Of a stretch of DNA of 64,000 nucleotides, positions 18,013 to 64,000 are shown piece after piece. The DNA comes from an uncultured virus (IMG/VR IMGVR_UViG_3300042878_002054) (lineage: Duplodnaviria > Heunggongvirae > Uroviricota > Caudoviricetes): IMG/VR virus record IMGVR_UViG_3300042878_002054. The stretch is one strand, 5' to 3'. The position numbers and the translations under genes were made by a program. How positions within the stretch are numbered: the first letter of the stretch is position 1; every line of letters starts with the position of its first letter. The notes below the pieces were generated by a model, which was given only the letters and a program-made list of their open reading frames with translations, ran no database searches and was not told the DNA's origin.

Positions 18013-18042
18013 AGAAAAGCCTACTCTTCAGTAGGCTTTTCT
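18013..18042. terminator. Bidirectional terminator
   Basis: AGAAAAGCCTACT-CTTC-AGTAGGCTTTTCT. Confidence 0.8.
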
Positions 18043-18254
18043 ATTTTGTATATCTTTTCTATTCTTGATTTTCTTCTCCAGTTCTTCATCCAGAAATCCA
18101 TATAGAATCCGTTGTTTACGGTTGTAGTTGAATATCTACTTTTAAGTGTCATTCTTGGTGAGAAATTGCTTTCTACTATTGCAGGTGTTGTACTTTGTAT
18201 TAGATAAGGAGCCCAGACTACTCCCGGACTATTTCCTTTCTTTCCTATCAGCAT
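18021..18254 (-). CDS. 77-aa protein resembling the C-terminal segment of a gp23-type major capsid protein, with C-terminal tag
   Basis: IGKKG..PGVVWAPY...NFSPRMTLKSRY resembles gp23 VGYKG..AGIYYAPY...NFQPVMGFKTRY; ends RKSRIEKIY. Confidence 0.65.
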   Translation of the reverse strand: MLIGKKGNSPGVVWAPYLIQSTTPAIVESNFSPRMTLKSRYSTTTVNNGFYMDFWMKNWRRKSRIEKIYKIEKPTEE

Positions 18255-29795: not shown

Positions 29796-29804
29796 TAATA
29801 AAAT

Positions 29805-30090: not shown

Positions 30091-30109
30091 AGAATAAAAT
30101 TCAAATACA

Positions 30110-30141
30110 AAAAAATAGTGAGAAAAAATCTCACTATTTTT
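30110..30141. terminator. Terminator after nrdA
   Basis: AAAAATAGTGAGA-AAAAA-TCTCACTATTTTT. Confidence 0.8.
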
Positions 30142-30145
30142 ATTT

Positions 30146-44044: not shown

Positions 44045-45571
44045 CTAAAGTTCTGCTTCAAGCTTCTCAATCTGGTTTTGTATGTCCTTATATTCTTCTT
44101 TTTTGTCCATCATCACCTTCTTGGCTTTCTTTCTATCTGCGTAGACATCTTCAAGCATTCTCAGTGTTGGAGAAAGTCTTTTTTCGAATACTGCACCATT
44201 CACACATAAAACATGTTTATCCAAATCGATTGGCCTACCATTATCACATTGTGATTTGTTGTTTGGATTCTGTATTCCAATGAAGTTTTCCGGTGCAATA
44301 AAGAATTGTCTTTGTGTTGTAGGATAAAGTGAGGCAAAATCGTATGTCACGCACCATCTGTTCATTCCAACTACAGGGTCTTTTACCCATCCACCAGCAA
44401 TAGTAGACTCAGCATCACCTCTATCTTCTTTAAAGAGTACGATGTTGTCTTGCTCTCTGAATCGATTTCTTAAAACTCCTTCTGTAATAGCCAAAGATCC
44501 TAAGGCGTTGTTCATCTGTGAAACTACGTCGACAATTCTAATCCTTGCTAACGATGAAATCGCATAAATGATTGATATGTAGTTTCTTGCATCGTGAATC
44601 TTTTGAACCAAAACACTATCGACCGCGTTATAATACATAAAAGTCTCAAAGTCATCTTCATAAAGCTTTTGTAAAGAACCATTGTACTTAATCTTATCAA
44701 CTCCAACTAACTTACTAGAAACAAAGTCTAAAGATGATGACTCTTTTACTTTAATAGAAGTATCACAGATTTCATACAGCTGCATGTAGTCAAAAATCAT
44801 CCTATGTGCAGGAACTTCATATTCTGTACCCCACATCTTATTGATTTTCTTTACAGGTGAAGATTCTGCAGGGTTTATCTTGTACTCTTTACCATTCATC
44901 CATTTAGAAAGCTTTCTAGATCTGTTCACTAAGAACAACCAGTCATATTGTAAGAAGTTCCATCCTGTAAGAACAGGCATCTTTGGAACCATTTTGTGAA
45001 AGAAAGCATAAAGCATATCAAATTCGTCTTCATATTTGACATATTTGAATTTATACTCTGTACCAAACTTCTCAAAATATTTGTTGGTGTTATTCAAAAT
45101 TCTTTCCTGCATATCATCAGGCATGTCTTTCAGACCAAGAAGTATAATCTTATCATCATAAACGATAGAGATAGAAAGAACTTGTGTTGAAGCACCTTCT
45201 TTTGTTACGTTTCCTTCTAAATCTTTGATATCGGCAGCTTCAGGGAATCCGTCTACAATCTCGGTCTCGATATCTATAAAGTATATCTTAGGAAGGTTAT
45301 ATTCGAATAGTTCTTCTTTTTCTGATTCTGGTAAAGCATCCATAAACTCATAGATTGCATATCTGTCTGGATGACTTACCTCAACGTGCTTAACACACTT
45401 TCCGTCCCAAGACTTAAATGTTGGATGTCTTTGAGGGTCGTCGTCTTCACAGGAAACGTACTTCATTGGGTTATCCCAGTCGTAGTATTTTAGTTTGATA
45501 TCACCGGTCTTGTCGACGTAGCTACATACTAGCTTTTTGGTGTGACTTAAAAATTGAGTTTCAATTAACAT
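44045..45571 (-). CDS. Family B DNA polymerase, N-terminal subunit (3'-5' exonuclease + motif A); split gp43-like
   Basis: FIDIET ExoI, TGWNFLQYD ExoII, YNAVD ExoIII, GGWVKDP, YDFASLYP; ends after DRKKAK without KxxxNSxYG or YGDTDS. Confidence 0.88.
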   Translation of the reverse strand: MLIETQFLSHTKKLVCSYVDKTGDIKLKYYDWDNPMKYVSCEDDDPQRHPTFKSWDGKCVKHVEVSHPDRYAIYEFMDALPESEKEELFEYNLPKIYFIDIETEIVDGFPEAADIKDLEGNVTKEGASTQVLSISIVYDDKIILLGLKDMPDDMQERILNNTNKYFEKFGTEYKFKYVKYEDEFDMLYAFFHKMVPKMPVLTGWNFLQYDWLFLVNRSRKLSKWMNGKEYKINPAESSPVKKINKMWGTEYEVPAHRMIFDYMQLYEICDTSIKVKESSSLDFVSSKLVGVDKIKYNGSLQKLYEDDFETFMYYNAVDSVLVQKIHDARNYISIIYAISSLARIRIVDVVSQMNNALGSLAITEGVLRNRFREQDNIVLFKEDRGDAESTIAGGWVKDPVVGMNRWCVTYDFASLYPTTQRQFFIAPENFIGIQNPNNKSQCDNGRPIDLDKHVLCVNGAVFEKRLSPTLRMLEDVYADRKKAKKVMMDKKEEYKDIQNQIEKLEAEL

Positions 45572-49887: not shown

Positions 49888-50370
49888 TTATTCTTTTATA
49901 TATGTTATTTTGGATTTATAACAAAAAATACTCCAATATATTATATTTAATATTGGTGTCAAAAACCAGAATACTTTTATATCAAAAACAAATCTAGTAA
50001 TAAACTCAATAGCTATGCTCGTCAATATAGCGATTAGAAAGTACCAAACTAATCTATCAGATTTCTTTGAAAAAAGATACTTTTTAAATTTGTTTATTCG
50101 AGTAGCATCAGGAAATCCTGATTTTACAAACTGATCCAAACTTTCTTCTCTTTTACAAGCAACACAAAGTTTAAAATCTTCTTTTTGTAACATAGCAGCA
50201 AAGTCTGTGTAATCTAAATCATCGTGATTAACATCGGTAGAACAGCTATAACACTTCTCGCCTCTTCTTACTTCGAATGTTATTGACTTGTACTTTTTGA
50301 TTCGCCTGGTTGAATATATGAATCCAAAAATCAATGCGAAAAATTGAAGAAAAGTTAAAAAAGCTACCAT
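49888..50370 (-). CDS. Membrane protein with CxxC...CxxC zinc ribbon
   Basis: Three hydrophobic segments; CYSC and CVAC. Confidence 0.7.
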   Translation of the reverse strand: MVAFLTFLQFFALIFGFIYSTRRIKKYKSITFEVRRGEKCYSCSTDVNHDDLDYTDFAAMLQKEDFKLCVACKREESLDQFVKSGFPDATRINKFKKYLFSKKSDRLVWYFLIAILTSIAIEFITRFVFDIKVFWFLTPILNIIYWSIFCYKSKITYIKE

Positions 50371-50816
50371 TATCCTAAAATTGAAGTTAAAAATATATCT
50401 CTTTTTTCTGCCTTAGAAAGAGTTTTGAAACATTCCGGTCCTATTCCAGTTTCAATAGAAGAAGGAACGGTAAGTGGTCTATTACATTTACCACATTTAC
50501 CTTCATGCCATATTTCGATACACTCTGGTAAAGATTCTTTTTTGAGTTTATTAAGAACATAAGAGAAAACCTTCTCAGATTGAGCACCTGTGAAGTTGGA
50601 TTTTTTACCATGTTTGTAGATTCCGTTAGAAACTGTTCCTAAGTAGGAATACTGCTCGGGACCAGTTAAAACACTAACAAAGAAAAGATTACTATCTTTT
50701 GCTTTTTTAACTCGATAAGTGAATCTGTTTTCAGTTTCACTATTCAAAAAAGTAAATGTTGAGTTACCTGCGAAGATAAACTTTAACGCGTCGGAGTTAT
50801 TTAGTCTTTTGCTCAT
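50370..50816 (-). CDS. DUF6011-like zinc-binding phage protein with tag-like C-terminus
   Basis: CGKCNRPLTVPSSIETGIGPEC; ends KRDIFLTSILG; TATATTTG at 50832..50839. Confidence 0.75.
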   Translation of the reverse strand: MSKRLNNSDALKFIFAGNSTFTFLNSETENRFTYRVKKAKDSNLFFVSVLTGPEQYSYLGTVSNGIYKHGKKSNFTGAQSEKVFSYVLNKLKKESLPECIEIWHEGKCGKCNRPLTVPSSIETGIGPECFKTLSKAEKRDIFLTSILG

Positions 50817-50876
50817 ATATCAATGTTTCTACAAATATAAGGATTTTTTTCAATACTATAAAATAATATATAACAA

Positions 50877-51503
50877 ATGAAGCATTTGAAGAAATTTGAA
50901 AATTTTGATAAGGTAGCATTCCACGGATTCTTGATGACTCCACAGAAAATGAGACTTCCATCTTGTGAAATAGAATGGAAAGATTCTTCTCAGGACACAG
51001 GATGTCCAAAGTTTTCTGATGGTATGAATATAACCGACGAAGATGAAGAAAAGGCAATATCTTATCTTGATGAAGAAGATATTGGTGAGATAGTAGGATA
51101 TTCAAGAGGTGGTGCCATATTGATGCAAGCCATATATAAAGGAGCAAAAACTCCAAAGTCTGTTTGTATGGTGGCTTCTGCTTGGAAAAGACAATGGGCG
51201 ACAGTTCCTTTGATAGGAGACGAGTTGGAAGGAATAGATGGATTTGTTCTACACGGAGGAAAAGACGATAAAGTTCCCTTAAAGCATTCTGTTATATTGG
51301 CATTGAGTAGTGATCTTCCTTTGTATGTGTTTCCTGAGTGTGATCACGTAAACATATTAAAACATACCGAAGATGAAACCAAAGGAATATTGGTAGATTA
51401 TAAAAAAATGGCAGAACTATTGTATATACTTCCAGATTGGGGAACAGGTGTTGGTAGTAAAAAAGAAATAGAACTACAATACTCTATTTCAAAAAAATTA
51501 TAA
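50877..51503 (+). CDS. Alpha/beta hydrolase
   Basis: AFHG, GYSRGG nucleophile elbow, LHGGKDDKVP, DH; starts MKHLKKFENF. Confidence 0.85.
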   Translation: MKHLKKFENFDKVAFHGFLMTPQKMRLPSCEIEWKDSSQDTGCPKFSDGMNITDEDEEKAISYLDEEDIGEIVGYSRGGAILMQAIYKGAKTPKSVCMVASAWKRQWATVPLIGDELEGIDGFVLHGGKDDKVPLKHSVILALSSDLPLYVFPECDHVNILKHTEDETKGILVDYKKMAELLYILPDWGTGVGSKKEIELQYSISKKL

Positions 51504-51507
51504 TGAT

Positions 51508-52122
51508 ATGAGGCTTATATTAGAATTTCAAGAGTTTATTGATAGAGAGTCTAAAACTAGAACAAGAGGACTCGGTGAACAAGAGTTTTTAGAAGTTTTC
51601 AGAGAGAACTGTAAAAACTTCTCGTTTGATAACGACATGCTTTGGAGAAACTCAAACAACTTTGGAGACTTTGGTTTGTTCTTCGAAGAAGCTAGAAGAG
51701 GAACAATCGGAACATACAACTATAAAGACTTTTTTGATGATAGAAAAGACTATACCGTTCCAAGATATAAAAGTCTTATTGGTTCTACTACAAAAGAAGG
51801 TGCTGAAGCATTTGCATCAGATACTAATACTTATATCGTTATACCATTTGATGGTGCGAATATAGTATTCAGTTGTACTCCTGATTTGGCACTATTAGCA
51901 AAGACAAAACAGGAATTTTCAGATTCACTTTTCTTACTTAAACAATATGATACAGGATTCAAATCACCAGTTTCTGAGCTTTTTGAAATAATGTCTCATA
52001 CTACAATATCATCATATAGAGATATGTTTGTTAAGAGGAATTTAGGATTCGAATATTTCACAAATGCCAACTGTTTAATGATTAAAGAAGATAAGATAGG
52101 ATGGTTAAAAAATAATATATAA
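51508..52122 (+). CDS. Hypothetical protein
   Basis: Starts MRLILEFQEF. Confidence 0.75.
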   Translation: MRLILEFQEFIDRESKTRTRGLGEQEFLEVFRENCKNFSFDNDMLWRNSNNFGDFGLFFEEARRGTIGTYNYKDFFDDRKDYTVPRYKSLIGSTTKEGAEAFASDTNTYIVIPFDGANIVFSCTPDLALLAKTKQEFSDSLFLLKQYDTGFKSPVSELFEIMSHTTISSYRDMFVKRNLGFEYFTNANCLMIKEDKIGWLKNNI

Positions 52123-52137
52123 AAAAAAGTAAATAAT

Positions 52138-52629
52138 ATGAAGTATATTAAAAATTTCAGACTTTTCGAAAACGAAGAGACATCGTGGAAAAAATTCTAC
52201 GACGATGAAGAAGATGTTTTTTTAGTGAATGAAGAAACAACTCCTGATGAATTGGAAAACGTGTTAGAGAGTTATGTTGATGGATTACATGACTATGGAT
52301 CTGGAGATTCACTTGTAAGAAAGTGTTGTGATATATTGAGAGATAGTATTCTTTTTATACGTAACGAAGAAGAAGTGTTAGGTGATACCGGAAAAGAAGA
52401 GGATTATGCTGATAAGATGTATGATGAATTGGAAAGAAGGTTCACTGATGATTATTCAACTAAACGTAACGAATATGGTGAAGGTACGACCTCTGGTGTA
52501 TTGAAACTAGATGGTAGACCTGTATTTGAGTATGAGTCACACGACGATGGTTACGGTTTCGGTGGTAGTCTTAGCAACATTGACCATATATTGGAAGTTA
52601 TGCTTGATTTATTACAAAGAGAATTATAA
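52138..52629 (+). CDS. Acidic hypothetical protein
   Basis: Starts MKYIKNFRLFE; AATATATA upstream. Confidence 0.75.
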   Translation: MKYIKNFRLFENEETSWKKFYDDEEDVFLVNEETTPDELENVLESYVDGLHDYGSGDSLVRKCCDILRDSILFIRNEEEVLGDTGKEEDYADKMYDELERRFTDDYSTKRNEYGEGTTSGVLKLDGRPVFEYESHDDGYGFGGSLSNIDHILEVMLDLLQREL

Positions 52630-52654
52630 CATATAAAAAAAAATAAAAAGAGTT

Positions 52655-52846
52655 ATGGAAAACAAAGACTTAAAAATGATTAAAAATGAGGCTCTTCCTA
52701 AAGACGAAGCACTTTTACTTAGAGAAAAGTTCATCAGTGAATATTCTAAGAAAAAAGGATGGGATCCAAAAGAATTGAGCACTAACCAAATGTTAGAAAT
52801 CGTTTCTCAGAGAGAGTACAAAACTCCAGGTATTATACTTGGATAA
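52655..52846 (+). CDS. Small hypothetical protein
   Basis: 63 aa, followed by a terminator. Confidence 0.7.
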   Translation: MENKDLKMIKNEALPKDEALLLREKFISEYSKKKGWDPKELSTNQMLEIVSQREYKTPGIILG

Positions 52847-52873
52847 AAAAAAAGAGGCTTAAAGCCTCTTTTT
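52845..52873. terminator. Bidirectional terminator
   Basis: AAAAAGAGGCTT-A-AAGCCTCTTTTT. Confidence 0.85.
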
Positions 52874-52878
52874 TGTTT

Positions 52879-54012
52879 TTATAATACATTCATAAATGTT
52901 TTTTTCTTACCAGGAAGAACTTCAGATATTTTGTTTTTTGGAATAGCTTTCAACTCTTCAATCATTTCCATCAAATCTGTTCTGTTTCCAACAAACTCAA
53001 GTTTACCTGATTTTGCTTCAAAATATAGGCTGTGTCCATTCCACACGATACTTTGTACATCATAGTATTCTACTTGAGTACCTAACCATTTGTAGATTTC
53101 AGCCTTTTCTTCATCAATACGAGAAGTTGCAATATAAACTCTTTTAGTCTTACCATCCAAAAGAACGTGTGTATAGTTTTCTTCTTGCCACTCTGGGTTT
53201 TCTTGATAGTTCCCATAGTTGTACTTACTCATAGATTCGTATCCATATCCACTATAATAGTGATCATAATCGTCTTCTTCTAAAACATCTCTTTTTACAG
53301 GAAGAGTTTCCCAATCTACTTTAACAACCGTATTACACAATCTTCGTAAGAACTCGATATCTTGACTTTCTTTTCCAGTGTGTTCGTTTTGGTATCCTAC
53401 AGATATGTTAGTACACTCTGGAACTAACTTTACAAACTTTGCAGAGTCAGTTAAGATACCAGTGTCGTCTAACACCATCTTCATTTTGTTTCCTGTCGCA
53501 TTCATTCTGTTTCCTAACTCTTGTGCAAACTCGTCAGAGCAACATCTTCCAAACATTTGGTATGTGATAATAGAGTCTGTTCCTCGTCTGTCGAAAGAAA
53601 CCACTTTTTTGATGTATTTAGAAAATTCTGTTTTTGTCCAAGTGTCTGCAAGTTTTCTAGATCCGATACAACCAACTTCTTCACCAATGAAAAAGTAGTA
53701 AAGTCCTGGAACTTGCTTTTGTATCATATAAAGTATAACAGTCATACCAGCTTTATCGTCTGCTCCTAAGATAGACTTTCCATCAGTACGAATGATGTTT
53801 CCATCAAAGACGTGTTTTACTTTAGTTTGTGTTTTGTCCGCGGTGTCTAAGTGACAAGTAAACATCGTGGAAGGAGTTTCACCTATTTGAATGTAGTAGT
53901 TTCCTAAGCCATCTTCTTGATATCCTTCTGGAAGTTGGTGCAACAATTGATGCTCTTTTCCGTGTGGATATGTAAACTTTGTAAGTGCTAGGAATTTTTT
54001 AGTTATTCTCAT
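52879..54012 (-). CDS. M20/M28-family metallopeptidase
   Basis: CHLDT, LGADDKAG, GEEVG, FDRRG, TDS, GYQNEHT; TATCTTTG at 54050..54057. Confidence 0.88.
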   Translation of the reverse strand: MRITKKFLALTKFTYPHGKEHQLLHQLPEGYQEDGLGNYYIQIGETPSTMFTCHLDTADKTQTKVKHVFDGNIIRTDGKSILGADDKAGMTVILYMIQKQVPGLYYFFIGEEVGCIGSRKLADTWTKTEFSKYIKKVVSFDRRGTDSIITYQMFGRCCSDEFAQELGNRMNATGNKMKMVLDDTGILTDSAKFVKLVPECTNISVGYQNEHTGKESQDIEFLRRLCNTVVKVDWETLPVKRDVLEEDDYDHYYSGYGYESMSKYNYGNYQENPEWQEENYTHVLLDGKTKRVYIATSRIDEEKAEIYKWLGTQVEYYDVQSIVWNGHSLYFEAKSGKLEFVGNRTDLMEMIEELKAIPKNKISEVLPGKKKTFMNVL

Positions 54013-54092
54013 TTCGAATAATATTAAGTTATTATAAACTATTATGGTACAAAGATAAGGAACTTTTTCTTATTTAGAAAAGTTTTAAACAA

Positions 54093-54650
54093 TTATTTGT
54101 TGAAAATATCGTCGATTTTTTTATCACGGATATATCCAGTCTTTAAAGAATCAAGTGTTGCTGTCCAACCATCAATTTTATTTGTTAGCCAAATTTCTGA
54201 TCTAGTGGCCATATAGCCAGAAATACTATTAGGTGCCGAATCTTTGTATTCTGACTTTACATGAAAGTCTGCAACATCTTCAGAGTCTTTATAGATGTAT
54301 TCTTTTGCTACTATTATATAGTCTATACCTAACTCGTCGATTAGTTCTTTGTATTTAGGTATAAGACCCCGACTAAGAGTCCAAAAGTCAAATATCATTA
54401 GATTAACTCTGAATCTATTTGCGGGATCTTCAATCTTAGATTTAAAATCTTCAAAGTCATTAAAAGTTATCTGTGGTGATATGTAATAAATAAGATTTGT
54501 GATGTTTTTTCCTGAAGAAGTTGGTTTTGGTGATGTGAACAATATAGGATTTCTACCATCTAATTCCAAAAATTTAACAATAGAACTTACTGCACTTGAA
54601 ACACATGCTATGTCTCCAGTAAAATAATTACAACGCTTTAGCTCTATCAT
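54093..54650 (-). CDS. Hypothetical protein (possibly degenerate P-loop fold) with C-terminal tag
   Basis: NLMIFDF Walker-B-like strand; ends IRDKKIDDIFNK. Confidence 0.65.
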   Translation of the reverse strand: MIELKRCNYFTGDIACVSSAVSSIVKFLELDGRNPILFTSPKPTSSGKNITNLIYYISPQITFNDFEDFKSKIEDPANRFRVNLMIFDFWTLSRGLIPKYKELIDELGIDYIIVAKEYIYKDSEDVADFHVKSEYKDSAPNSISGYMATRSEIWLTNKIDGWTATLDSLKTGYIRDKKIDDIFNK

Positions 54651-55026
54651 TTATGTTCTTTTTTCTTACGTTCACCATATATTTAAACTTGTTCAGAAAT
54701 CTTCTTCCAATCAACATTGGATATTTCATTTTTTTCCTATTAGTTAAGGATATATGAACCTTATAACTTTTTTCACCTAAAACCATCTTTGATATTATAG
54801 AAAATCTTTTTTGTTTCTTACCAAAAGAGTTACGCACCACTATGGTTTTGTACTTATCATACACATATTCCTTTTCGTCTATTATAAAGAAAAGTTTGTC
54901 ATCTTTTATGAAAATCTCATCTACATGAAGAGCGTTTCCATAGGCACCTGTGTCTATTTTCGCGTCTGTTGTTTCTATTCCAAGCTCAGGAAAAGAAACT
55001 TTTTCTGTTCTTCCCACATATTTCAT
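54628..55026 (-). CDS. Retropepsin-like aspartic protease (RimK-associated family)
   Basis: VGRTE, AKIDTGA, VRNSFG, R..MKYPMLIGRRFL; TATCTTTG at 55051..55058. Confidence 0.85.
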   Translation of the reverse strand: MKYVGRTEKVSFPELGIETTDAKIDTGAYGNALHVDEIFIKDDKLFFIIDEKEYVYDKYKTIVVRNSFGKKQKRFSIISKMVLGEKSYKVHISLTNRKKMKYPMLIGRRFLNKFKYMVNVRKKNINDRAKAL

Positions 55027-55095
55027 AAATATTATATCTAATAATATAAACAAAGATACGATTATTTCATAAAAATAATAAAAAAATCATATAAT

Positions 55096-55857
55096 ATGGG
55101 ATTCAATTATAATTTCACCTATATAATCAGTTATAGACATAGTGTAGAAAGACTGAATAATCTAAAAAGAACATTGGAGTGGATAAACGCTTTTTCCGGT
55201 GCAGAGATTATTATAGTAGAACAGGACAAGCATTCAAAGCTTAAAGACATCAAATTACCATGTAGACATATTTTTATAAAATCAAACATGCCTTTCAACA
55301 AGTCTTGGGGATTCAATGTAGGATTAAAATATGCGAATTCAAACGTAATAGTATTTGGTGATTCTGATTTGATAATGGACCCACAAGAGTTTATCAAATC
55401 TGTAAAGATGTTAGACCAATACGAGATGGTCAATCCTTATAACTCTGTTATTGACCTAACTCCACAAGAATCTGGTGCCGGTTTTGAACAGATAATGCAA
55501 ATCAACAGAGCAGGTAGAGGAGAAACTGATATTCAGAAAGTTCCTTTATGTGGTGGAATCTGTATCTTTAGAAGAGAAGCTATACATAAGATTGGTGGAT
55601 GGCACGAGGACTTTATCGGTTGGGGCGGAGAAGATGATTTTCAGTCAGTTAAGGTAAAAGCATTCTTAAACTGGTATGAAAATAAAGCAAAATGTTTCCA
55701 TATCTATCACGATAGATCTGCACCAGATATGAAATGGTATCAAAGAAATCTTCAACTTCTTCAAAAACTTAGTCCAATGAATAAAGAAGAGTTGCAAAAA
55801 GTGATAAACAACGTCACTCCAAAATCAGGTTTGAAATACAAATATGACAACTTTTAA
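55096..55857 (+). CDS. Glycosyltransferase (GT2/GT7 galactosyltransferase-like)
   Basis: IIVEQ, FNKSWGFNVG, DSD, GGWHEDFIGWGGEDDF, HIYH. Confidence 0.88.
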   Translation: MGFNYNFTYIISYRHSVERLNNLKRTLEWINAFSGAEIIIVEQDKHSKLKDIKLPCRHIFIKSNMPFNKSWGFNVGLKYANSNVIVFGDSDLIMDPQEFIKSVKMLDQYEMVNPYNSVIDLTPQESGAGFEQIMQINRAGRGETDIQKVPLCGGICIFRREAIHKIGGWHEDFIGWGGEDDFQSVKVKAFLNWYENKAKCFHIYHDRSAPDMKWYQRNLQLLQKLSPMNKEELQKVINNVTPKSGLKYKYDNF

Positions 55858-56578
55858 TGATAAACTAAAATCAATCTGTAACTACTCTGAAGAAAATAAG
55901 AGTATAGGTCCAACTGCCCAATTGATGTATATGGATATGATAGTAGAAGACGACGAGACTAGAAGAGAGGTAAAGAGAAAGAAAAGAAATCTTACAATAG
56001 ACACCGTTTTAGATGAGGTAGACGAAAACGGAGACTACACATCTGAGACAATATCTTCAGAAGAAGGATCTATTGCGACAATATCTCCAAAGATCATGAC
56101 TCTAAATACTCAATCAAATCCTTTTGTAGATGATGAGAGTTTATACAATAATGTAATCACATTTTTAGAAAGTAACACAAAACAAAAACACCATTATCCA
56201 ATAAGTCTTGATTATGTGGCGATGAACGACCCACATAGTACATTAGAGGAAAACAACGCAATAAACTTCAGAAGGATTATAACAAAGATTGCACACGCAT
56301 CCAACTTTATCGCAGCAGAAGGAAGAATGGGTCCAGGAACCGCAGTGATTGTCGGTAGAAATAACTGGCATTGGTTCGATAGTCAATCAGATTTTATGCT
56401 TGGAACTATTTCTATTATATTAGATGAAAACATTAGTCCAAATAAGATTATAGTCGCTCGTGGTGGTAGAATGGATCAGAGTGGTATTATATGTGTAAAA
56501 AGTATACCAGATAATACTTATTGTCTAAAAGAAACTCCACATTGGGAAAAACAATATGTATGGTTTACTGTAAAATAA
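55844..56578 (+). CDS. Protein resembling a truncated gp23-type major capsid protein with an internal tag
   Basis: IGPTAQLMYMD; KRNLTIDTVL; FRRIITKIAHASNFIAAEGRMGPGTAVIVGRN; IILDE....KIIVARGG...SGII. Confidence 0.55.
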   Translation: MTTFNDKLKSICNYSEENKSIGPTAQLMYMDMIVEDDETRREVKRKKRNLTIDTVLDEVDENGDYTSETISSEEGSIATISPKIMTLNTQSNPFVDDESLYNNVITFLESNTKQKHHYPISLDYVAMNDPHSTLEENNAINFRRIITKIAHASNFIAAEGRMGPGTAVIVGRNNWHWFDSQSDFMLGTISIILDENISPNKIIVARGGRMDQSGIICVKSIPDNTYCLKETPHWEKQYVWFTVK

Positions 56579-56579
56579 G

Positions 56580-56604
56580 AAAAGCACTCATTTGAGTGCT
56601 TTTT
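56580..56604. terminator. Bidirectional terminator
   Basis: AAAAGCACTCA-TT-TGAGTGCTTTT. Confidence 0.85.
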
Positions 56605-57160
56605 ATGTATATTGAAGTTTTTTTGCTGGTATTCTTACCTTATCATATTTAGTAAGTAACTTATAAAGTTTTTCCCATTCTTCTTTAGGATTTCTAACGA
56701 TTCTTTCATACCATTTATTGTTGTTCTGATACTCTACAACCATTCCTATTTTAAGATCCTCTTGAGATTTTGGTTTCCAATATCTAGTCTTTTCTACAAA
56801 AGAAAATGATATTCCACTATGTATGTATGATTTGTTTGATTCGTTAGTATTGTACATTACTATCTCTAATGGTTCTTCTGAACCGTTAAAGAAAACTCTT
56901 TTGGCTTCTGACTCACCTAAATATTTTATGATTGCGTTTTTTTCGTTGAAATGTCCTAAAAGAAAAAGAACATCGTTTCTAAGTTCATCGTTGTCTGTTC
57001 TACCAAATGCCATTATTGAATCTTCGAACATACCTTCAAAATATCCTTTTATTGGAAGTATTTGATAGTTCTTTGCATACAATACTGATGTAATCTGATC
57101 CAGATTTTCAGAAGAAGAAATAAGCATGTATGAAGTGTTTGGTTGTTCTAATCCTAGCAT
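56603..57160 (-). CDS. Hypothetical protein
   Basis: 185-aa ORF. Confidence 0.75.
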   Translation of the reverse strand: MLGLEQPNTSYMLISSSENLDQITSVLYAKNYQILPIKGYFEGMFEDSIMAFGRTDNDELRNDVLFLLGHFNEKNAIIKYLGESEAKRVFFNGSEEPLEIVMYNTNESNKSYIHSGISFSFVEKTRYWKPKSQEDLKIGMVVEYQNNNKWYERIVRNPKEEWEKLYKLLTKYDKVRIPAKKLQYT

Positions 57161-57205
57161 AGTTTATATATAAATATTTCCTTCTGGTATATCTTATATA
57201 TTATT

Positions 57206-58477
57206 TTAAAAAAGGTGAAATTCCTCATAAAGCTTTGTTTTGAATATGGCTTCGACCTCATCTCTTTTATTTCTTGGTATTATTATACTATCGTGAACAG
57301 TAACTATTTTTATTTCTGGAAAAGAATTTTTAACTTCTCGTATTATTTTATTGAAGATTAAATTAGACTCTGCTTTTTGTAGTTCATATGCCAAAACTTT
57401 ATAGTCTCCTTTTTCCTTTTTGTATAGTTTTATGAAATTGTGTATAGTTGGAAATAGTTCTCTGAACACTTTGTCTGCTTTGCTATTGTGAACGTTTCTT
57501 CCAAATAAGACTTTGTACGTCATTTCTTTGACCATAGGACGATCATTTGTCTTCATATGATTCATTACGTGTTGGTAGTAGTTTCCGTTTACCGTAAGGT
57601 CTCTAAATAGCTCAAACTCCTCGGTGTTTACCCATTTAGAGTTACTATCTGCTATTATCTTAGTAAGGAACAAAGGTTGACTATTCTTTATGTCAATCTC
57701 ATGTGTTTCCTCACCATCCAATAAAAGACAGTTCTTTCTAATGAAAGATTTTAATATAGTGAAGTTTGTGTGCATTCTTCCGTAACTATCAAAATGATAG
57801 AATATATGTTTGTCGTTCACACATTCAACAGAGTATCTGTTTCTGTTATATATGTCAGTGTCGTTGTGTTGAAGATTATCTAAATAGAATATGGCTCTAT
57901 CAAACTCTATCTTTGTATAGAATAGGTCGTCTACAAGCATCGCTTTTATATCTGCGTCTATTAATCCATTTTTTATTCCATCTTCTTCTACTTGTGATAC
58001 CTTGTTTTTGTACTTCTTCAAAAGAGTCGTGTCTTTGTTGACGTATCTCTTTATTTTTCCTTTAAGTATGTGTTCTGATATCTTATAGACTTTGGCGTTT
58101 CTACCTGCTCTATAGTTTGCGACCATAGATATGGTCTTCGTTTCTATTAGATAGTCCATATAGTAGTTGTATAGGTGTCCGTACTTCTCTTTGAGAATGG
58201 TGGACATGAGATGAAATCTGTTGTCTTTTTTGAAATAGTATTTCAGTATTAAGTTGTGGACTATATCTAAAGCATATGAAGACTTTAGTTTTTGACCTTT
58301 ATATTCGAAGTTTTTGTTTTTTGAAAATTCCTCCATCGATTCTGGTAAAAACTGAAGACTGTGTTTTTTGTCTTCTAGTTTCTTTCTGATATTGGAATAG
58401 CCACTGATTTTGAATAATGGTACGATTGAATTTTCACTCATACATTTTATATCCACTAGTTCAGGATATGTTTTCAT
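57206..58477 (-). CDS. Compact PolA/T7-RNAP-like palm-domain protein with putative N-terminal winged helix
   Basis: YGRMHT, EIDIKNSQP, R..VK...YKVLFG, FPTI, LQKAES, VTVHDSII. Confidence 0.55.
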   Translation of the reverse strand: MKTYPELVDIKCMSENSIVPLFKISGYSNIRKKLEDKKHSLQFLPESMEEFSKNKNFEYKGQKLKSSYALDIVHNLILKYYFKKDNRFHLMSTILKEKYGHLYNYYMDYLIETKTISMVANYRAGRNAKVYKISEHILKGKIKRYVNKDTTLLKKYKNKVSQVEEDGIKNGLIDADIKAMLVDDLFYTKIEFDRAIFYLDNLQHNDTDIYNRNRYSVECVNDKHIFYHFDSYGRMHTNFTILKSFIRKNCLLLDGEETHEIDIKNSQPLFLTKIIADSNSKWVNTEEFELFRDLTVNGNYYQHVMNHMKTNDRPMVKEMTYKVLFGRNVHNSKADKVFRELFPTIHNFIKLYKKEKGDYKVLAYELQKAESNLIFNKIIREVKNSFPEIKIVTVHDSIIIPRNKRDEVEAIFKTKLYEEFHLF

Positions 58478-58689
58478 GATTCGTAAATTTTGCGAACCTT
58501 TGATCTTCTACCTGAAGTTCTGTTAATATCCTTCCATTCTTTCATAAGAGTTGCCTCTATTTCAGAGACATGGTCCATACCATACATACTCTGTAAATCA
58601 GTCGCTAGCTCGCGGGTCCATTGAGCACGCAAAGGTCTTGTCTCTGTTTTTACTTCAACAGAGGTCATCTTTAAATCTATAGATTTCAT
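58474..58689 (-). CDS. 71-aa protein resembling the central helix segment of a gp23-type major capsid protein, with C-terminal tag
   Basis: TRPLRAQWTRELATDLQSMYGMD..SEI...L..E...INR resembles gp23 SRQLKAAYSIELAQDLRAVHGMDADAEL..IL..EI..EINR; ends RRSKVRKIYES. Confidence 0.75.
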   Translation of the reverse strand: MKSIDLKMTSVEVKTETRPLRAQWTRELATDLQSMYGMDHVSEIEATLMKEWKDINRTSGRRSKVRKIYES

Positions 58690-60059
58690 TATTTGATTGG
58701 AGCTTTAGGTTCTTCTTCTACTACTTGTTCTTCAGGAATCGCAGGTCCTTTACCACCTTTACCTTTTTTCTTTTTGTCTGTCGCAGCACCTTTTGTGAAC
58801 TCATCATATACGTCAGGATAAACTTCACCTTCCGCATCAGTATCGTATTGAATATCGAAGAAATCACCAAAGTCTAATAAACCAGACCTCGTAAGTTCAA
58901 GTTCATGAATCTTATTTAGATAGTTATCAATGTGTTTACTGATATCATCTATGAAAAGATTTAAAAGTTTTACGGTATTTTCTGTAAAAACTCCGATTGG
59001 TTTTTTTCTTTTTTTGTTAAAAGAACCTAATATCACTTTGAATATGTACTCAAGTTTTGGACTTTCGTTTATGTATTCTTTTGTAAGTTTATTTTCAATC
59101 AATTCTGTGTTTATCTTAAACTTGTCTTTATCAAAAAATTCAGGAACTATAAACTCAAAATCTAATAAGTCTTGTTTTAGTTCTCCAATATAGAAGTTAA
59201 AAAGTTTACACATCAAATAGATATAGATGTCATCTTTTTTCTCTCCTTTCATTTTTATATCCTTTAAGTCTATCGATTGACAGAAATTCAAAAAGTTCAC
59301 TAATATCAAAGTGTATATTTCAACAAAGTCGGTGCTATTTGAATCACTTACTCTTGTGTAGAGAGGGTTTAAAAGTTCAAAAGAAACATCTTTTATTTTT
59401 GATCGAATTATTAACTTTTCAATGTTTGATTGGAATTCGTCTTCCATTAAGAAAGAGTTTTCTGATGCAGGATTAAGTATTTTGTAAAAGAAGAAAGCAA
59501 AGTTTTTTTCTCCAAAAACATATTCTAAATCTTCTTCACTTGTATTTAAGAAGTATTTAATGGCTTCTATCATTCTTTCTGATAAAACACCTTGAAACAT
59601 TATAGGAAGCATATCTACATCAAACAATCTAGCATATTCGTCTATCTCATCTATGATAAAATCATACTTTCCACTTTTATAGATTGCACTTAAAACAAGT
59701 TTGTTCTTAGGCATTCTTTCATATTCAATGTTTGCTGGTTGGTTGTCCGGAAAGTATTCAAAACAAAACCACCATTTTTTGTTCAAAAGAGATTTTACTC
59801 TTATATCTAAAGAGTTAAGATAATCTATTGCAGGATTGTAATAATTCTGCATTGCCAAATCGACAAGATTTATTTCTTGATTGCTTATAGACTTTGGTTT
59901 GATAGAAAAGTCTTTTCCATTCCAGTTTGCCCAGATTTTTGATCCTTGAACGTCTTCGAATACAACTATTTCGTTTGCGAAAATTTCGTCTAACAAAGTT
60001 TGACTTTCGGTTTCGTTAAGATTTATCAGTTTTCCCATATTTTTGTTATAGTCTTCCAT
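58689..60059 (-). CDS. Hypothetical protein with possible degenerate RNA-ligase (nucleotidyltransferase) fold
   Basis: VFEDVQGSKI resembles EKxDG without the Lys; FCFEYF; IEKLII; likely start at 60059 or 60038. Confidence 0.55.
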   Translation of the reverse strand: MEDYNKNMGKLINLNETESQTLLDEIFANEIVVFEDVQGSKIWANWNGKDFSIKPKSISNQEINLVDLAMQNYYNPAIDYLNSLDIRVKSLLNKKWWFCFEYFPDNQPANIEYERMPKNKLVLSAIYKSGKYDFIIDEIDEYARLFDVDMLPIMFQGVLSERMIEAIKYFLNTSEEDLEYVFGEKNFAFFFYKILNPASENSFLMEDEFQSNIEKLIIRSKIKDVSFELLNPLYTRVSDSNSTDFVEIYTLILVNFLNFCQSIDLKDIKMKGEKKDDIYIYLMCKLFNFYIGELKQDLLDFEFIVPEFFDKDKFKINTELIENKLTKEYINESPKLEYIFKVILGSFNKKRKKPIGVFTENTVKLLNLFIDDISKHIDNYLNKIHELELTRSGLLDFGDFFDIQYDTDAEGEVYPDVYDEFTKGAATDKKKKGKGGKGPAIPEEQVVEEEPKAPIK

Positions 60060-60116
60060 TTGATTTTTGTTTTTTATCAATAGGTTATATATATAAAATT
60101 GATATGGTGCTTTTTT

Positions 60117-60143
60117 AAACAAACATGTCGGGTACATATATAA
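60117..60143 (+). promoter_or_regulatory. Putative middle promoter AAAC-N18-TATAA
   Basis: Upstream of the glycosylation operon. Confidence 0.45.
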
Positions 60144-60149
60144 TGTCAT

Positions 60150-61088
60150 ATGAAGAAACTGCTATTTATTGTGCCTCATCTTTCCACAGGAGGAATGCCA
60201 CAATTCGTTTTAAAACAGATAGAGATTCTAAAAGAGGAATACGACATATCTCTTGTAGAATGGGAAAATATAACAGGTGGAGTATATGTCGTTCAAAGAA
60301 ATGCAGTAGAAAGTATTCTTGGTTCTAAGTTTTATAGTCTTAGTTTAAATAAAACAGAACTTCTGAGTATTTTGTCTGATGTCGAACCAGATATAGTTCA
60401 TTTTCATGAAATACCAGAAACGTTTGTCAATGTTGGAATACTAAACAACATCTATTCTGCAGATAGAGACTATCATATAGTAGTGACGACACATTCGTCA
60501 ACCACTAATCCATCTACTATAAAATATACTGCAGATAGATATGTTCTTGTTTCTGAATGGAGTAAAGATGTCTTTGATAAATTCTTCAAAGGTGAGATTG
60601 AGTGTGAGGTCTGGGAGTATCCTATTGAGAAATATGAATATGACAAAGATTCTGCAAAAGAAGAGCTAGGTTGGAACAAAGACTACAAACATATTTTGAA
60701 TGTTGGTTTATTTACAAGAGGTAAAAATCAAGGTGAGCTTTTTGAACTAGCAAAAGAATTCGAAAATGAAAAGGTTATGTTTCATTTCGTAGGAAATCAA
60801 GCAGTAAACTTCAAAGACTATTGGGGTCCTATTATGGAATCAATACCTAAAAATTGTATTGTTCATGGAGAACGAAACGACGTAGATAAGTTCTACAAAG
60901 CCGCAGACCTTTTTTACTTTACTTCCAACTTTGAATTAAGTCCTTTGGCAGTGAAAGAGGCTTTGAGTTATAACTTACCTACATTCATAAAAAAGTTACA
61001 CACATACAAAAACATGTATGATGAGAAAGTAACCTATATAGTAGGTGACAAATCTGAAAATAAAAAGAATATATTAAGATATGTATAA
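60150..61088 (+). CDS. GT4-family glycosyltransferase
   Basis: PHLSTGGMP, VG.F..GKNQ, AADLFYFTS.FELSPLAVKEALSY. Confidence 0.88.
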   Translation: MKKLLFIVPHLSTGGMPQFVLKQIEILKEEYDISLVEWENITGGVYVVQRNAVESILGSKFYSLSLNKTELLSILSDVEPDIVHFHEIPETFVNVGILNNIYSADRDYHIVVTTHSSTTNPSTIKYTADRYVLVSEWSKDVFDKFFKGEIECEVWEYPIEKYEYDKDSAKEELGWNKDYKHILNVGLFTRGKNQGELFELAKEFENEKVMFHFVGNQAVNFKDYWGPIMESIPKNCIVHGERNDVDKFYKAADLFYFTSNFELSPLAVKEALSYNLPTFIKKLHTYKNMYDEKVTYIVGDKSENKKNILRYV

Positions 61089-63102
61089 AGCATTGAAAAA
61101 AAATCCTAATCCAATAAAGGATGTAAATCCTATAAAATTTATATGCAACTACAACGAAGGTGCTTATTTAGAAGTTCAGTCGGAACTTGAAAGAAAATTC
61201 AAAGTTGAATTTACCAACTCAAAAGGTCAGATTGAATACTCTACTGAGATTGGATCAAATATGTGGTGTAGAACCAGTAAAAAATATGTAGAAGAATACA
61301 CATGTACCGTAAAGGACGAATCGGGTAAAATAGTCTTTGTTGAAAAGTACAATCCTACAGGCAAAAGAGTTTATATAACACTCGAATCAAAATCACTTGG
61401 TGATACTATGGCTTGGTTTCCTTATATTGACGAATTTAGAAAAAAGTGGAAATGTACTGTAGTTTGTTCAACATTCCACAACAATCTTTTTATAGACCAA
61501 TATCCTGATCTTGAGTTTGTATCACCAGGAACAAACGTGCCTGAAATATATGCAACCTATAGAATAGGTTTATTCTTTATGAATGAAAAAATTGATTATA
61601 GTAAGCATAGAAAAAATCCTACAAAGATTTCATTGTTAGAAATGGCTACAGATATACTTGGATTGGAATACTCTGAGATTAGACCAATATTGAGACCATC
61701 ACGAGTAGAAAAGAAAAAGAAAAGAGTTGGTATCGGAATGCATTCGACTGCACAGACGAAGTATTGGAACAACCCAACAGGATGGCAAGAGTTAACAGAC
61801 TTTTTGTTACTACAGGGTTATGAAGTAGTTATGATGTCTAAAGAGGCAGATGGTTATATGGGTAACTTTTATCCAAAAGGAGTTATTAAACTTCCAGAAA
61901 ACTCATTTGATGATTTGATTGATAATCTTTACTCTTGTGAGTTCTTTATTGGAATAAGTAGTGGACTTAGTTGGCTTGCTTGGGCGGTGAATATACCGGT
62001 AGTACTTATATCTGGATTTACAGGAGAGTATATGGAACCCACAGACAATGTAATAAGAATAATAGAAAAAAGTGTTTGTAACGATTGTTGGGCTAGACAT
62101 AAATTTGATCCAGGAGATTGGAACTGGTGTCCTGACCACAAAGGAACTCCAAGACAATTCGAATGTAGCAAATCGATAACACCGGAGATGGTCATCGAAT
62201 CTATGATATCAAACGGACTTTTAGGCGGAGAAAAGATTGTAAAGGACACTATAAAGTCTATCATATTCTATTCCGACGCAAACTACGAGTATCAAGCCAA
62301 ATCATTGGTGGAATCGATATTGATGAACACGGAAGAAGACATTAAAATGTTTTATTACACTATAGGATTTGAGTCTTCTATAGAACATGAAAGACTTACT
62401 AAAATCGAGATACCTATCGATGCGAGCAAGCCTACGGGATATAGAACTTTTGAGTTTTACAAACCAAACATTATATTAGAGCATTTGGATAGATTTGGTG
62501 GAAAAGCACTTTTCTTAGATACTGATATCATAGTAGGTAGAAGATTTGATATTAATTACTTTGAGAATAAAAACGATTATCCGTTATTGGCAAATGGTAA
62601 CTGGTCTTATCCTTATGCGTTTGAAGGAACACAAAGATATGACGAGGGTGCTTTGATGAAGTATTTTGGAGTATCTGAAAGATCAATGGAATATGTTTAT
62701 TCCAACATAATAAGCTTTTCTGAAAGATGTAGAGACTTTATAATGGAGTGGAAATCTATATGTGATAATCAGTATCTTCTTTCAAAGAGAAAAGTATTTT
62801 TCCCGTTTCCTGATGAGACTGCCATAAATGTAGTTCTTTGGAAAAGAAACGCGACAAAAAACCTTGGAAGAGTATATCTAAATACTTTAGAGTTTGAACC
62901 TTTTGAATATGTTGAGAAAAACGACGATATAAAAGGAGATCCTAAAATAAACAACGGAATAATGGGAAGTGATCTTTTAAGATGTGACAACTCATCTAAA
63001 ATAATGTTATATCATGGAATAAAAGATAAAGATGTTCTTGATAAAGTTGTTGAGTATATGAAAGTCAAAAATGAAAAAGTTAAATCTTTACAAACATTAT
63101 AA
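61081..63102 (+). CDS. Aah/TibC-like (autotransporter) O-heptosyltransferase fused to a GT-A-type domain
   Basis: SKSLGDTMAWFPY, STAQTKYWNNPTGW, FFIGISSGLSWLAWA, LISGF, CNDCW, WCPDH, FECSKSIT; C-terminal YKP and LFLDTD. Confidence 0.88.
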   Translation: MYKALKKNPNPIKDVNPIKFICNYNEGAYLEVQSELERKFKVEFTNSKGQIEYSTEIGSNMWCRTSKKYVEEYTCTVKDESGKIVFVEKYNPTGKRVYITLESKSLGDTMAWFPYIDEFRKKWKCTVVCSTFHNNLFIDQYPDLEFVSPGTNVPEIYATYRIGLFFMNEKIDYSKHRKNPTKISLLEMATDILGLEYSEIRPILRPSRVEKKKKRVGIGMHSTAQTKYWNNPTGWQELTDFLLLQGYEVVMMSKEADGYMGNFYPKGVIKLPENSFDDLIDNLYSCEFFIGISSGLSWLAWAVNIPVVLISGFTGEYMEPTDNVIRIIEKSVCNDCWARHKFDPGDWNWCPDHKGTPRQFECSKSITPEMVIESMISNGLLGGEKIVKDTIKSIIFYSDANYEYQAKSLVESILMNTEEDIKMFYYTIGFESSIEHERLTKIEIPIDASKPTGYRTFEFYKPNIILEHLDRFGGKALFLDTDIIVGRRFDINYFENKNDYPLLANGNWSYPYAFEGTQRYDEGALMKYFGVSERSMEYVYSNIISFSERCRDFIMEWKSICDNQYLLSKRKVFFPFPDETAINVVLWKRNATKNLGRVYLNTLEFEPFEYVEKNDDIKGDPKINNGIMGSDLLRCDNSSKIMLYHGIKDKDVLDKVVEYMKVKNEKVKSLQTL

Positions 63103-63115
63103 AAACAATAAAAGT

Positions 63116-63496
63116 ATGATTTTAGTAGAAGTAAGTATAGGTGAGATATTGGACAAACTGACAATATTGAGTATTAAAAAGAATCGTATTTCAGATCCTG
63201 AAAAACTTGTTCACATAGGGAAAGAGTATGATATATTAGAAGAGAAATCAAAACATTATCTTGATTCTAAAGAAGTGAAAGATTTGTTTGACGAACTCAT
63301 TGATGTAAATTTGAAGCTTTGGATAATCGAAGACGATTTGAGAGATTTAGAGTCACAGAAAAGATTCGATGATGAGTTTGTACAAAAGGCCAGGCTGGTA
63401 TACATGACCAACGACCTTAGATTTAAGTTAAAGAACCAAATAAACCAAATAACAAACTCTGGAGTTCAAGAACAAAAAGGATATAAGGTGTATTAA
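63116..63496 (+). CDS. DUF6165-like protein
   Basis: VEVSIGEILDKLTILSIK, N.KLWIIEDDLR, ARLVY.TND.R..LK..IN, EQKGY. Confidence 0.85.
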   Translation: MILVEVSIGEILDKLTILSIKKNRISDPEKLVHIGKEYDILEEKSKHYLDSKEVKDLFDELIDVNLKLWIIEDDLRDLESQKRFDDEFVQKARLVYMTNDLRFKLKNQINQITNSGVQEQKGYKVY

Positions 63497-64000
63497 ATGA
63501 AAAAGTTGATAATAATAGACACATATCCAAAAGCAGAGGAACATATAGATTGTCTAAACGAATGTGTAGATAGATTGTCAGGTAAGGGATATGACCTTAT
63601 GATAGTATCACACTATCCTGTTCCATTGGATATTCAAGAAAAGGTGGATTATTATATTTATGACAAAGAAAATATTTTAATGCCATACAATCTAACGCCA
63701 TATAGTTGGATGTCTAATGAATCATTTTACCTACAAGTAAATGCACAAGGACATGGTATTACTATATGTAAGAATATGTATAATGGTATATCAACTGCAA
63801 AGTCTTTAGGATACGATTTCTTCTTTTTTATGGAAGCAGACAATCTTCTTCATGAGGAAGATGTCATATTATTAGATAATCTTCAGTCCAAAATGAAAGA
63901 AGAAGATAAAAAAATGATATTCTTTAAAAGTAAAGAGGTTACTTATAACTTTTATGAGACATTGATATTTGGAGGATCACCAGAGTATTTTATGAATAGT
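63497..64000 (+). CDS. Partial CDS, likely a glycosylation-cluster protein; runs off the window
   Basis: MKKLIIIDTYP...IVSHYPVP..IQEKVDYYIYDKEN...FFMEAD; open to the window end. Confidence 0.75.
   Translation, partial: MKKLIIIDTYPKAEEHIDCLNECVDRLSGKGYDLMIVSHYPVPLDIQEKVDYYIYDKENILMPYNLTPYSWMSNESFYLQVNAQGHGITICKNMYNGISTAKSLGYDFFFFMEADNLLHEEDVILLDNLQSKMKEEDKKMIFFKSKEVTYNFYETLIFGGSPEYFMNS

Follow-up and report, generated by a model that had tools for sequence, protein, structure and literature searches.

A miniature gp23-type protein with a predicted HK97 fold, encoded beside glycosyltransferase genes in uncultured huge phages

Introduction

Proteins with the HK97 fold are known as the bricks of shells, namely phage capsids and encapsulins, and, in T4, as a vertex paralogue of nearly full size. 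Here, we describe a gene for a 244 amino acid (aa) protein, which we call mini, that is related to the major capsid protein (MCP) of huge phages and is predicted to have this fold. It lies in a 64,000 nucleotide (nt) stretch of DNA from an uncultured tailed virus (IMG/VR record IMGVR_UViG_3300042878_002054), the whole of which is referred to as the window.

The closest relatives of mini are the MCPs of the T4 gp23 and Mahaphage-Lak type (PF07068), with which it shares both the HK97 fold and the order of the structural elements. However, gp23-type MCPs are 553–608 aa long, and the mini gene lies apart from the head genes. Like mini, T4 gp24 (PDB 1YUE) is an additional paralogue that has the HK97 fold and shares a genome with its MCP. 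The gp24 protein is nearly as large as gp23, keeps the insertion domain and is encoded next to gene 23. In contrast, the mini gene is distant from the MCP gene, absent from a close relative (G008) and linked to genes for sugar enzymes.

Two groups of encapsulins are also relevant. Classical encapsulins such as Myxococcus EncA have a similarly compact HK97 fold of similar length and no long N-terminal arm, but no sequence relation between them and mini was found, mini does not match PF04454 and no cargo bearing a targeting peptide was recognised. Family 4 or 'A-domain' encapsulins (DUF1884, PF08967) are described by Andreas & Giessen 2021 (PMC8346489) as truncated HK97 proteins of about 100 aa that comprise no more than the A-domain, are known from a few Bacteroidetes and from hyperthermophilic archaea, and are encoded downstream of enzyme genes that they often overlap. 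The same study proposes that they are structural partners of the enzyme, a role that is still speculative, and reports that one forms a complex with GAPDH. The mini gene is likewise directly downstream of an enzyme gene, here a GT2-family glycosyltransferase gene (GT2) that overlaps or abuts it in nine of ten loci. However, mini is encoded by phages, is 244 aa long, keeps parts of the E-loop and P-domain and does not match PF08967, and the Family 4 proteins are not derived from gp23 by sequence. In the function that we propose below, mini would most closely resemble the truncated HK97 proteins of these Family 4 enzyme operons.

Relationship of mini to the major capsid protein

The earlier note on this DNA had described a capsid-derived ORF of 244 aa, and the list of open reading frames (ORFs) contains it, with an ATG start, at exactly the position given. 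The gene and the parts of its product are as follows, with the type of evidence in brackets.

55844..56578 (+): mini, gene for a 244 aa miniature gp23-type protein with a predicted HK97 fold (ATG ORF, homologues, fold, MCP homology and dN/dS)
55880..55948 (+): two N-terminal strands, residues 13–35, representing the outgoing strand of the E-loop and the P-domain and including IGPTAQLMYMD (secondary structure; weak match to MCP 113–140, E 0.11)
55952..56008 (+): conserved basic amphipathic helix, residues 37–55, at the site of the MCP insertion domain (pLDDT 80–85; conservation)
56015..56077 (+): acidic loop of low confidence, residues 58–78 (pLDDT 54–71; composition)
56078..56176 (+): return strand (TISPKI) and shortened spine helix (97–111), residues 79–111 (hhalign; secondary structure)
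56258..56503 (+): A-domain core, residues 139–220, homologous to MCP 422–524 (hhalign, BLASTP)
56486..56572 (+): shortened C-terminal hairpin and last strand, residues 215–243, with W240 and F241 at least 90% conserved (18-residue gap relative to the MCP; conservation)

The motifs that had been singled out were also found where claimed, namely IGPTAQLMYMD at residues 21–31, KRNLTIDTVL at 47–56, FRRIITKIAHASNFIAAEGRMGPGTAVIVGRN at 142–173, and IILDE, KIIVARGG and SGII within 191–216.

Of 322 candidate stretches from a scan of IMG/VR with the alignment of the mini family, 293 were confirmed; we kept the best 80 (79 loci). The family profile matched 80 of the 5,234 ORFs in the window and the scanned loci. 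Thirteen of these are short (193–263 aa) and include the mini of the window. The other 67 (457–608 aa, E 6e-14 to 3e-9) are the MCPs of the lineage and, in those records that were tested, show the Gp23 signature of Pfam. In a direct BLASTP comparison, mini and the 574 aa MCP of a related contig are 34% identical over 97 residues (E 3e-10). When 24 relatives of mini were aligned with 25 MCPs using hhalign, mini residues 139–220 were paired with MCP residues 422–524 (probability 98.5%, E 2.1e-15, 40% identity over 83 columns). With a 94-sequence alignment and a permissive setting, a single colinear alignment of 223 columns was obtained, which matches the TISPKI strand of mini to VIGPKISSK in the MCP. 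The likeness at the N-terminus, between IGPTAQLMYMD and the MCP stretch SPGPKIDLLYID, is weaker (BLASTP E 0.11), though the fold match is consistent with it; the pairing of the mini strands with MCP 113–140 was also the third alternative hhalign alignment.

The earlier note's assignment of a capsid origin is thus borne out both by homology to the MCP and by the predicted HK97 fold, and mini is almost certainly a paralogue of the lineage's own gp23-type MCP of about 570 aa. However, mini differs from typical gp23-type MCPs. At 244 aa, it has neither the size (500–600 aa) nor the N-terminal propeptide or arm and the insertion domain, and it does not reach the Pfam PF07068 Gp23 cut-off of 24.4 bits (the orthologue in LR756502 scores 17 bits, E 7.5e-4). 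Relative to the MCP, everything before residue ~100 is absent, as are the insertion domain of ~185 residues, for which a helix and loop of 45 aa stand in, 18 residues of the distal C-terminal hairpin and, in the colinear alignment, ~25 residues forming the second half of the spine helix.

Between mini and the MCP of the same genome, only 49–50 of 108 nt in the shared motif are identical, and the same codon is used for 4–5 of the 14–15 identical residues. As the codons differ, the likeness has been kept at the level of the protein, and gene conversion between the two genes, at least in recent times, is ruled out. The mini protein is an old and selected paralogue that stands alone and has been miniaturised.

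Predicted fold

AlphaFold2 models of mini reached a predicted local distance difference test score (pLDDT) of 78.9 and a predicted template modelling score (pTM) of 0.72 with 24 sequences. With 94 sequences, these values were 91.3 and 0.83, and the pLDDT of all five models was 88–91. The predicted order of elements is a short helix, strands 13–17 and 24–35, helix 37–55, a loop (~58–78), strand 79–90, helix 97–111, a long helix (134–160), a sheet and the C-terminal strands. The features by which an HK97 fold is recognised (A-domain, P-domain with spine helix, and E-loop, in the canonical order) are all present in the prediction.

A Foldseek search of the PDB returned 76 matches with E<=1e-3, led by T4 gp23 (E 2.8e-6), and all of the approximately 40 matches listed are phage capsid proteins with the HK97 fold. 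The best matches in BFVD were T4-like capsid proteins. Using VIA-align, Z scores of 16.4 and 15.7 were obtained for T4 gp23 chains (205–207 residues aligned), followed by gp24 (12.6–12.8), the EncA encapsulin (12.3–12.5, 182–185 residues aligned) and HK97 gp5 (~11.7); the structural alignments with gp23 chains show 13–15% identity. A search independent of Foldseek against 48,161 representative chains also placed gp23 and gp24 first (Z 12.5; 198 and 201 residues aligned). The earlier note had named a fold unrelated to the HK97 A-domain as the result that would speak against its claim. Instead, the best 50 of these chains were HK97-fold capsid or encapsulin proteins only. The A-domain encapsulin 2PK8 was not among the 50 best matches of any fold search, which excludes nothing. 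According to these models, mini by itself is predicted to be a complete compact HK97 core, and not an A-domain fragment or a piece that needs completion.

Size and conservation of the mini family

A word-indexed search with 485 candidates recovered 109 homologues at E<=1e-3, nearly all of them 224–251 aa long. An exhaustive profile search, which covered 1.84 billion representatives, found 364 clusters (50% identity) at E<=1e-3, 134 at <=1e-10 and 61 at <=1e-30. The best 150 of the 364 clusters are all 60–290 aa long. In the 94-sequence alignment, which spans sequences down to 21% identity, Arg48 is invariant and I156, R161, G163, K201, I203, G214, W240 and F241 are at least 90% conserved. Pairwise ratios of non-synonymous to synonymous substitution (dN/dS) were 0.17–0.49 for mini and 0.13–0.31 for the neighbouring gene u185. 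The mini gene is therefore real and under purifying selection.

These values bear on whether mini is simply the decaying, functionless remnant of a duplicated capsid gene, as its length, much shorter than that of the MCP, and the presence of other capsid-gene pieces in the window might suggest. However, 364 clusters of similar length, dN/dS values comparable to those of u185, one invariant and eight highly conserved residues across 94 sequences, and preserved synteny leave this explanation hardly credible.

The family has no entry in the collections searched. Nothing in PHROGs or NCBIfam matched mini, Pfam yielded sub-threshold noise only (no Gp23 match at E<=0.1), and the ESM Atlas gave no usable match. 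A sequence-profile search of the PDB with the relatives of mini returned only tropomyosin-type noise (E>=0.25). Megablast of window positions 50000–64000 against phage records found no match, and tblastn with mini matched two uncultured huge phages and no other phage records; the family has no cultured member among the phages searched. No earlier description of a family like mini was found among the papers listed by our literature searches. Contigs from RNA libraries, which derive from related strains, cover parts of mini in two runs (X23 and X24) and GT2 in three, though such contigs do not prove transcription or its level.

The helix that occupies the site of the insertion domain has the consensus K..NR.L.ID..L and is strongly conserved, with R48 in 94/94 sequences, K44 in 76/94, I52 in 80/94 and D53 in 68/94. 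It had been called an internal tag. The segment is a genuine, conserved helix, and it only loosely resembles the basic tails found on the small capsid fragments described below. The loop that follows is acidic across the alignment (D/E 27.6% at residues 59–78, 12.3% elsewhere). An L-x-E site for the prohead protease after the helix was also considered and rejected as not robust (L56 in 69/94 sequences, E58 in 47/94).

Gene neighbourhood and a possible role

Immediately upstream of mini is the glycosyltransferase gene.

55096..55857 (+): GT2-family glycosyltransferase, whose stop overlaps the mini start by 14 nt (Pfam Glyco_transf_7C 5.5e-9 and Glycos_transf_2 3e-8; PHROG galactosyl transferase 4e-16)

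The conserved block runs, in order, from M28 peptidase, ATP-grasp-like and Zn-protease genes (-) through GT2 and mini (+), then u185, u423, a gene for a 71 aa Gp23 fragment and u486 (-), to GT1 and GT9 genes (+). Ten related loci were compared, with L006 and L008 omitted as duplicates of L005 and L007. GT2 is present in eight of them, u185 in nine, and u423, the 71 aa fragment and u486 in eight each. The entire block is present in LR745206. Both GT2 and mini are found in ten loci (the window, L001–L005, L007, L009, L010 and L103); in eight of these the end of GT2 and the start of mini overlap by 14–20 nt, in one they abut, and in the remaining one they are 947 nt apart. Genes for GT1, GT9 and a DUF6165 protein lie 3.6–7 kb downstream of mini. 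No family or solved relative was found for u185, u423 or u486.

Relatives of mini are linked to sugar enzymes independently in three other contexts. In LR756500 (L100, 5897–7123, -), a 408 aa protein combines a mini-like domain (residues 10–205, E 1.7e-15) with a KdsD-like SIS sugar-isomerase domain (PF01380, 1e-16). This fusion gene sits in a same-strand cluster with genes for CMP-Kdo-synthetase-type (KdsB), Kdo-8-P-synthase-type (KdsA), Capsule_synth, GT1 and GT2 proteins, and the cluster also holds pyruvyl-, sulfo- and methyltransferase genes. A 275 aa relative of mini in L104 is followed by GT1 and has GT2 nearby, and a 209 aa relative is encoded two genes from a GDP-mannose-dehydratase-type epimerase.

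We tentatively favour the view that mini is a capsid-derived scaffold or adaptor that partners the glycan-building enzymes of the phage. The parts deleted from mini tie capsomers together in the shells of T4 and HK97. The loss of these parts, the retention of the A-domain and the location of the gene beside enzymes rather than head genes suggest a structural partner of the glycan module. Under this proposal, mini would no longer be a general shell brick. It would be made from the same message as the upstream GT2, probably by coupled translation, and would bind GT2 or its product pathway via the conserved helix or a face of the A-domain. In place of the insertion domain, at the tip of the E-loop, it has gained the conserved basic helix and the acidic loop. 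Docking of the glycan machinery onto MCP capsomers is a further possible role, as mini retains the most conserved A-domain segment of the MCP.

Several observations weigh against this proposal. No recognisable sugar gene is nearby in four of eight distinct family contexts (L011, L101, L114 and L116). The SIS fusion is a singleton: a search of a database of 5.8 billion proteins with its HK97-like part found only itself, and a search with the family alignment for longer, fused proteins found two MCPs only. G008 keeps GT2 (66% identity), u185, u423, a 62 aa ORF like the 71 aa fragment, and u486, all without mini, and this GT2 can therefore do without it. The main link, that between GT2 and mini, is seen in loci that are orthologous and syntenic and amounts to a single observation in evolutionary terms. 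As huge phages often carry glycosyltransferases, some adjacency is to be expected by chance. Finally, S and T are not enriched in residues 59–78, and a mucin-type glycan acceptor loop, which we had considered, was rejected.

Distribution among huge phages and a possible vertex protein

The MCPs closest to those encoded near members of the mini family are from six uncultured records of 462–735 kb (35–75% identity), two of which share both length and match. More distant MCPs are those of Lak phages and of Tenacibaculum, Chryseobacterium and Flavobacterium phages. The sizes of the records fit those of the Mahaphage genomes described by Al-Shayeb et al. (PMC7162821), whose predicted hosts are Bacteroidetes. 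The carriers of mini appear to be Mahaphage-type genomes, and the stretch represented by the window is present in many lake-water metagenomes.

A full-length mini and a full MCP are found together in the near-complete genomes G006 (476 kb), G007 (436 kb) and G009 (508 kb) and in the curated genomes LR745206 (635 kb) and LR756502 (642 kb), and the distance between the mini and MCP genes is 12–157 kb. LR756501 encodes a relative of 479 aa, and LR756500 relatives of 408 and 209 aa. In LR756504 (636 kb) and G008 (249 kb, estimated 90% complete), there is an MCP but no mini. The cultured relatives PTm1, pT24, MA9V-1 and MaF61 and also Lak-B5 have no mini, the search returning an MCP or nothing.

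Two of these records include further points of detail. The C-terminal half of the 479 aa protein of LR756501 (L101, 6253–7692, -) weakly matches both the mini profile and Pfam Gp23; this larger paralogue of the MCP adjoins PhoU/PHO4 phosphate genes. In G008, the slot of mini (L119, 1608–2210, +) is occupied by an unrelated 200 aa ORF that starts on the GT2 stop, has a weak match to the PRMT5 methyltransferase (E 0.05) and, by eye, contains a GxGxG-type stretch, VFDCGIGLG.

Alternatively, mini could be a vertex or minor lattice protein that, like gp24 in T4, occupies the eleven pentameric vertices of the very large capsid or other special places in it. It is the sole other complete HK97-fold relative found beside the MCP in the five genomes that have both. 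T4 gp24 shares first place with gp23 among the structural matches (Z 12.5–12.8, 199–213 residues aligned), the BFVD matches include a 297 aa 'head vertex protein' from Vibrio phage nt-1, and the codons of mini, which are unlike those of the MCP in the stretch compared, would fit a protein of low copy number. However, mini has no N-terminal arm, insertion domain or P-domain tip, contact parts that gp24 keeps. Its gene overlaps a glycosyltransferase gene and is well away from those for the MCP and the head, and one relative is fused to a metabolic enzyme. G008 has the block and a 571 aa MCP without mini, LR756504 has the MCP only, and no mini was found in PTm1, pT24, MA9V-1, MaF61 and Lak-B5. 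We therefore consider a vertex role, although the more conventional explanation, unlikely.

Two smaller capsid-derived genes

The window contains two further genes derived from the MCP, and the earlier note had treated these and mini as a set.

58474..58689 (-): 71 aa gene, E-loop return strand and whole spine helix of the MCP (Pfam Gp23 positions 132–187, E 1.3e-9)
18021..18254 (-): 77 aa gene, C-terminal hairpin piece of the MCP, or 'APY..SRY' segment (42–46% identity to MCP C-termini)

The 71 aa gene is present in eight of ten related loci, 2.6–3.2 kb from mini, and is under purifying selection (dN/dS 0.18–0.65). Its start and stop overlap the neighbouring genes and its product ends in a basic tail. 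Relatives of the 77 aa gene (86–99 aa) were found in three other records.

The note held that the three genes were largely complementary and might be a fragmented capsid paralogue. The first claim is correct in part. The part of the spine helix (~25 residues) and of the hairpin (18 residues) that mini is without are encoded by the small genes, but a return strand of the E-loop and a short spine helix are already present in mini itself and overlap the 71 aa product. The second was not supported, as mini alone is predicted to be a whole HK97 core (pLDDT 91.3) with about 200 of its 244 residues aligned to gp23 or gp24. For the same reason, we regard as very unlikely a split gene, in which the 244, 71 and 77 aa products would assemble in trans into one HK97-fold subunit. 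Two observations would fit such an arrangement: what mini has lost, the distal hairpin and the second half of the spine helix, corresponds to what the two small genes encode, and one of these genes lies close to mini in eight of ten loci. However, apart from the confident fold of mini alone and the overlap with the 71 aa product, the absent parts would be expected to join end-on with a small interface, G008 has a gene like the 71 aa gene without mini, and the 77 aa gene is 37 kb away in a different conserved block.

The 77 aa gene is the last of five successive overlapping small ORFs (window 18021–18684, -) of 50, 43, 57, 35 and 77 aa. By eye, the 50, 57 and 77 aa ORFs follow the C-terminal region of the MCP (approximately residues 478–566) in order; only the 77 aa match was scored. 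All five end in a K/R-rich sequence, ...KI[YF] in four and ...KINNV in the 43 aa ORF, and the next ATG is directly after it in another frame. Similar arrays are present in G001, G006 and G007 (L091, L093 and L094), where the tail may be internal to the protein. The pattern [RK][IV]x[KRN][IV][YF] occurs nine times in the ORFs of the window, compared to 0.8 times in shuffled sequences (maximum 3), and is similar to the last part of the spine helix in the MCP. It might serve as a peptide handle, or it might simply reflect A-rich sequence around initiation sites. One of the nine is at the N-terminus of a DUF5856 protein (window 17455–17997, +) and another at the end of a 30 aa ORF (window 25183–25275, -). 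In L011 (7167–9323, +), a thymidylate synthase gene is followed by an ORF of the NUMOD3 (homing-endonuclease) type and an 82 aa duplicate of the synthase C-terminus, an arrangement that exemplifies how gene pieces can arise beside mobile endonucleases.

The small genes are also relevant to the suggestion that mini acts outside the shell as a mimic of the MCP. It could be a decoy for host capsid sensors, or a regulator or chaperone that binds the MCP via the A-domain face; mini would not propagate the lattice, and the small capsid-piece genes would encode further mimics. Host defences triggered by capsid proteins, such as CapRel and Lit/Gol, are known. The stretch best conserved between mini and the MCP is one helix-loop-strand of the A-domain (the 40% identity over 83 columns noted above) with little elsewhere, the deleted parts are those thought to contact other capsomers, and two further capsid-piece genes are conserved. 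However, the shared motif may merely serve the fold, and neither the overlap with GT2 nor the SIS fusion is explained. No defence or anti-defence gene was recognised nearby in scans with general family libraries, the PADLOC library not being searched. Overall, we judge a mimic of this kind to be rather improbable. The earlier note had also raised the possibility of decoys, but the gene context points instead to glycan enzymes.

A broader version, in which all three capsid-derived genes form one capsid-mimic system expressed apart from the shell protein, is doubtful. Here, mini would mimic the capsomer face, and the small genes would supply the spine helix and the hairpin with a common basic tail. 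Such a system, to which we give little weight, would titrate capsid-sensing immune sensors of the host, or hold or steer the assembly of a very large capsid, with the glycan enzymes acting on the same complexes.

Other features of the window

The window (G+C ~33%) looks like a section of the genome of a very large tailed phage, and includes genes for a ribonucleotide reductase, thymidylate synthase, a DnaB-type helicase and a piece of a family-B polymerase, as well as collagen-like and S74-chaperone tail fibres, a TROVE protein and several glycosyltransferases. The polymerase piece (44045–45571, -; 508 aa) comprises the exonuclease domain and the start of the polymerase domain, which suggests a split polymerase gene. 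The three genes divergent from GT2 and mini (52879–55053, -) are a conserved trio encoding an M28 peptidase, an ATP-grasp-like protein and a PF05618 'Zn protease'; PF05618 is usually found alongside RimK-type ligases. The TROVE/Ro60-like protein (27977–29431, -) has a vWA domain, and its gene is followed by approximately 700 nt (29432–30145) without a long ORF, in which Rfam found no Y-RNA or other family. The Rfam scan of the window as a whole likewise returned no match. The late-promoter consensus TATAAATA occurs 9 times in the window, compared to 9.5 expected, and no timing can be inferred.

Implications

The mini proteins represent a large, unannotated family of half-size gp23 derivatives that are under selection in the largest known phages, are encoded outside the head module and are tied to sugar enzymes. 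With a family model, several hundred clusters (364 at 50% identity) that Pfam, PHROGs and NCBIfam leave without a match would be annotated. If mini were a vertex protein, it would show how small a penton subunit can become, and if a mimic, it would reveal a new principle of counter-defence or assembly control. If, as we tentatively propose, mini is a scaffold or docking adaptor for enzymes, it would be a viral counterpart, evolved independently, of the A-domain encapsulins, which are themselves poorly understood, and would provide a handle on how huge phages glycosylate their virions or the surfaces of their hosts.

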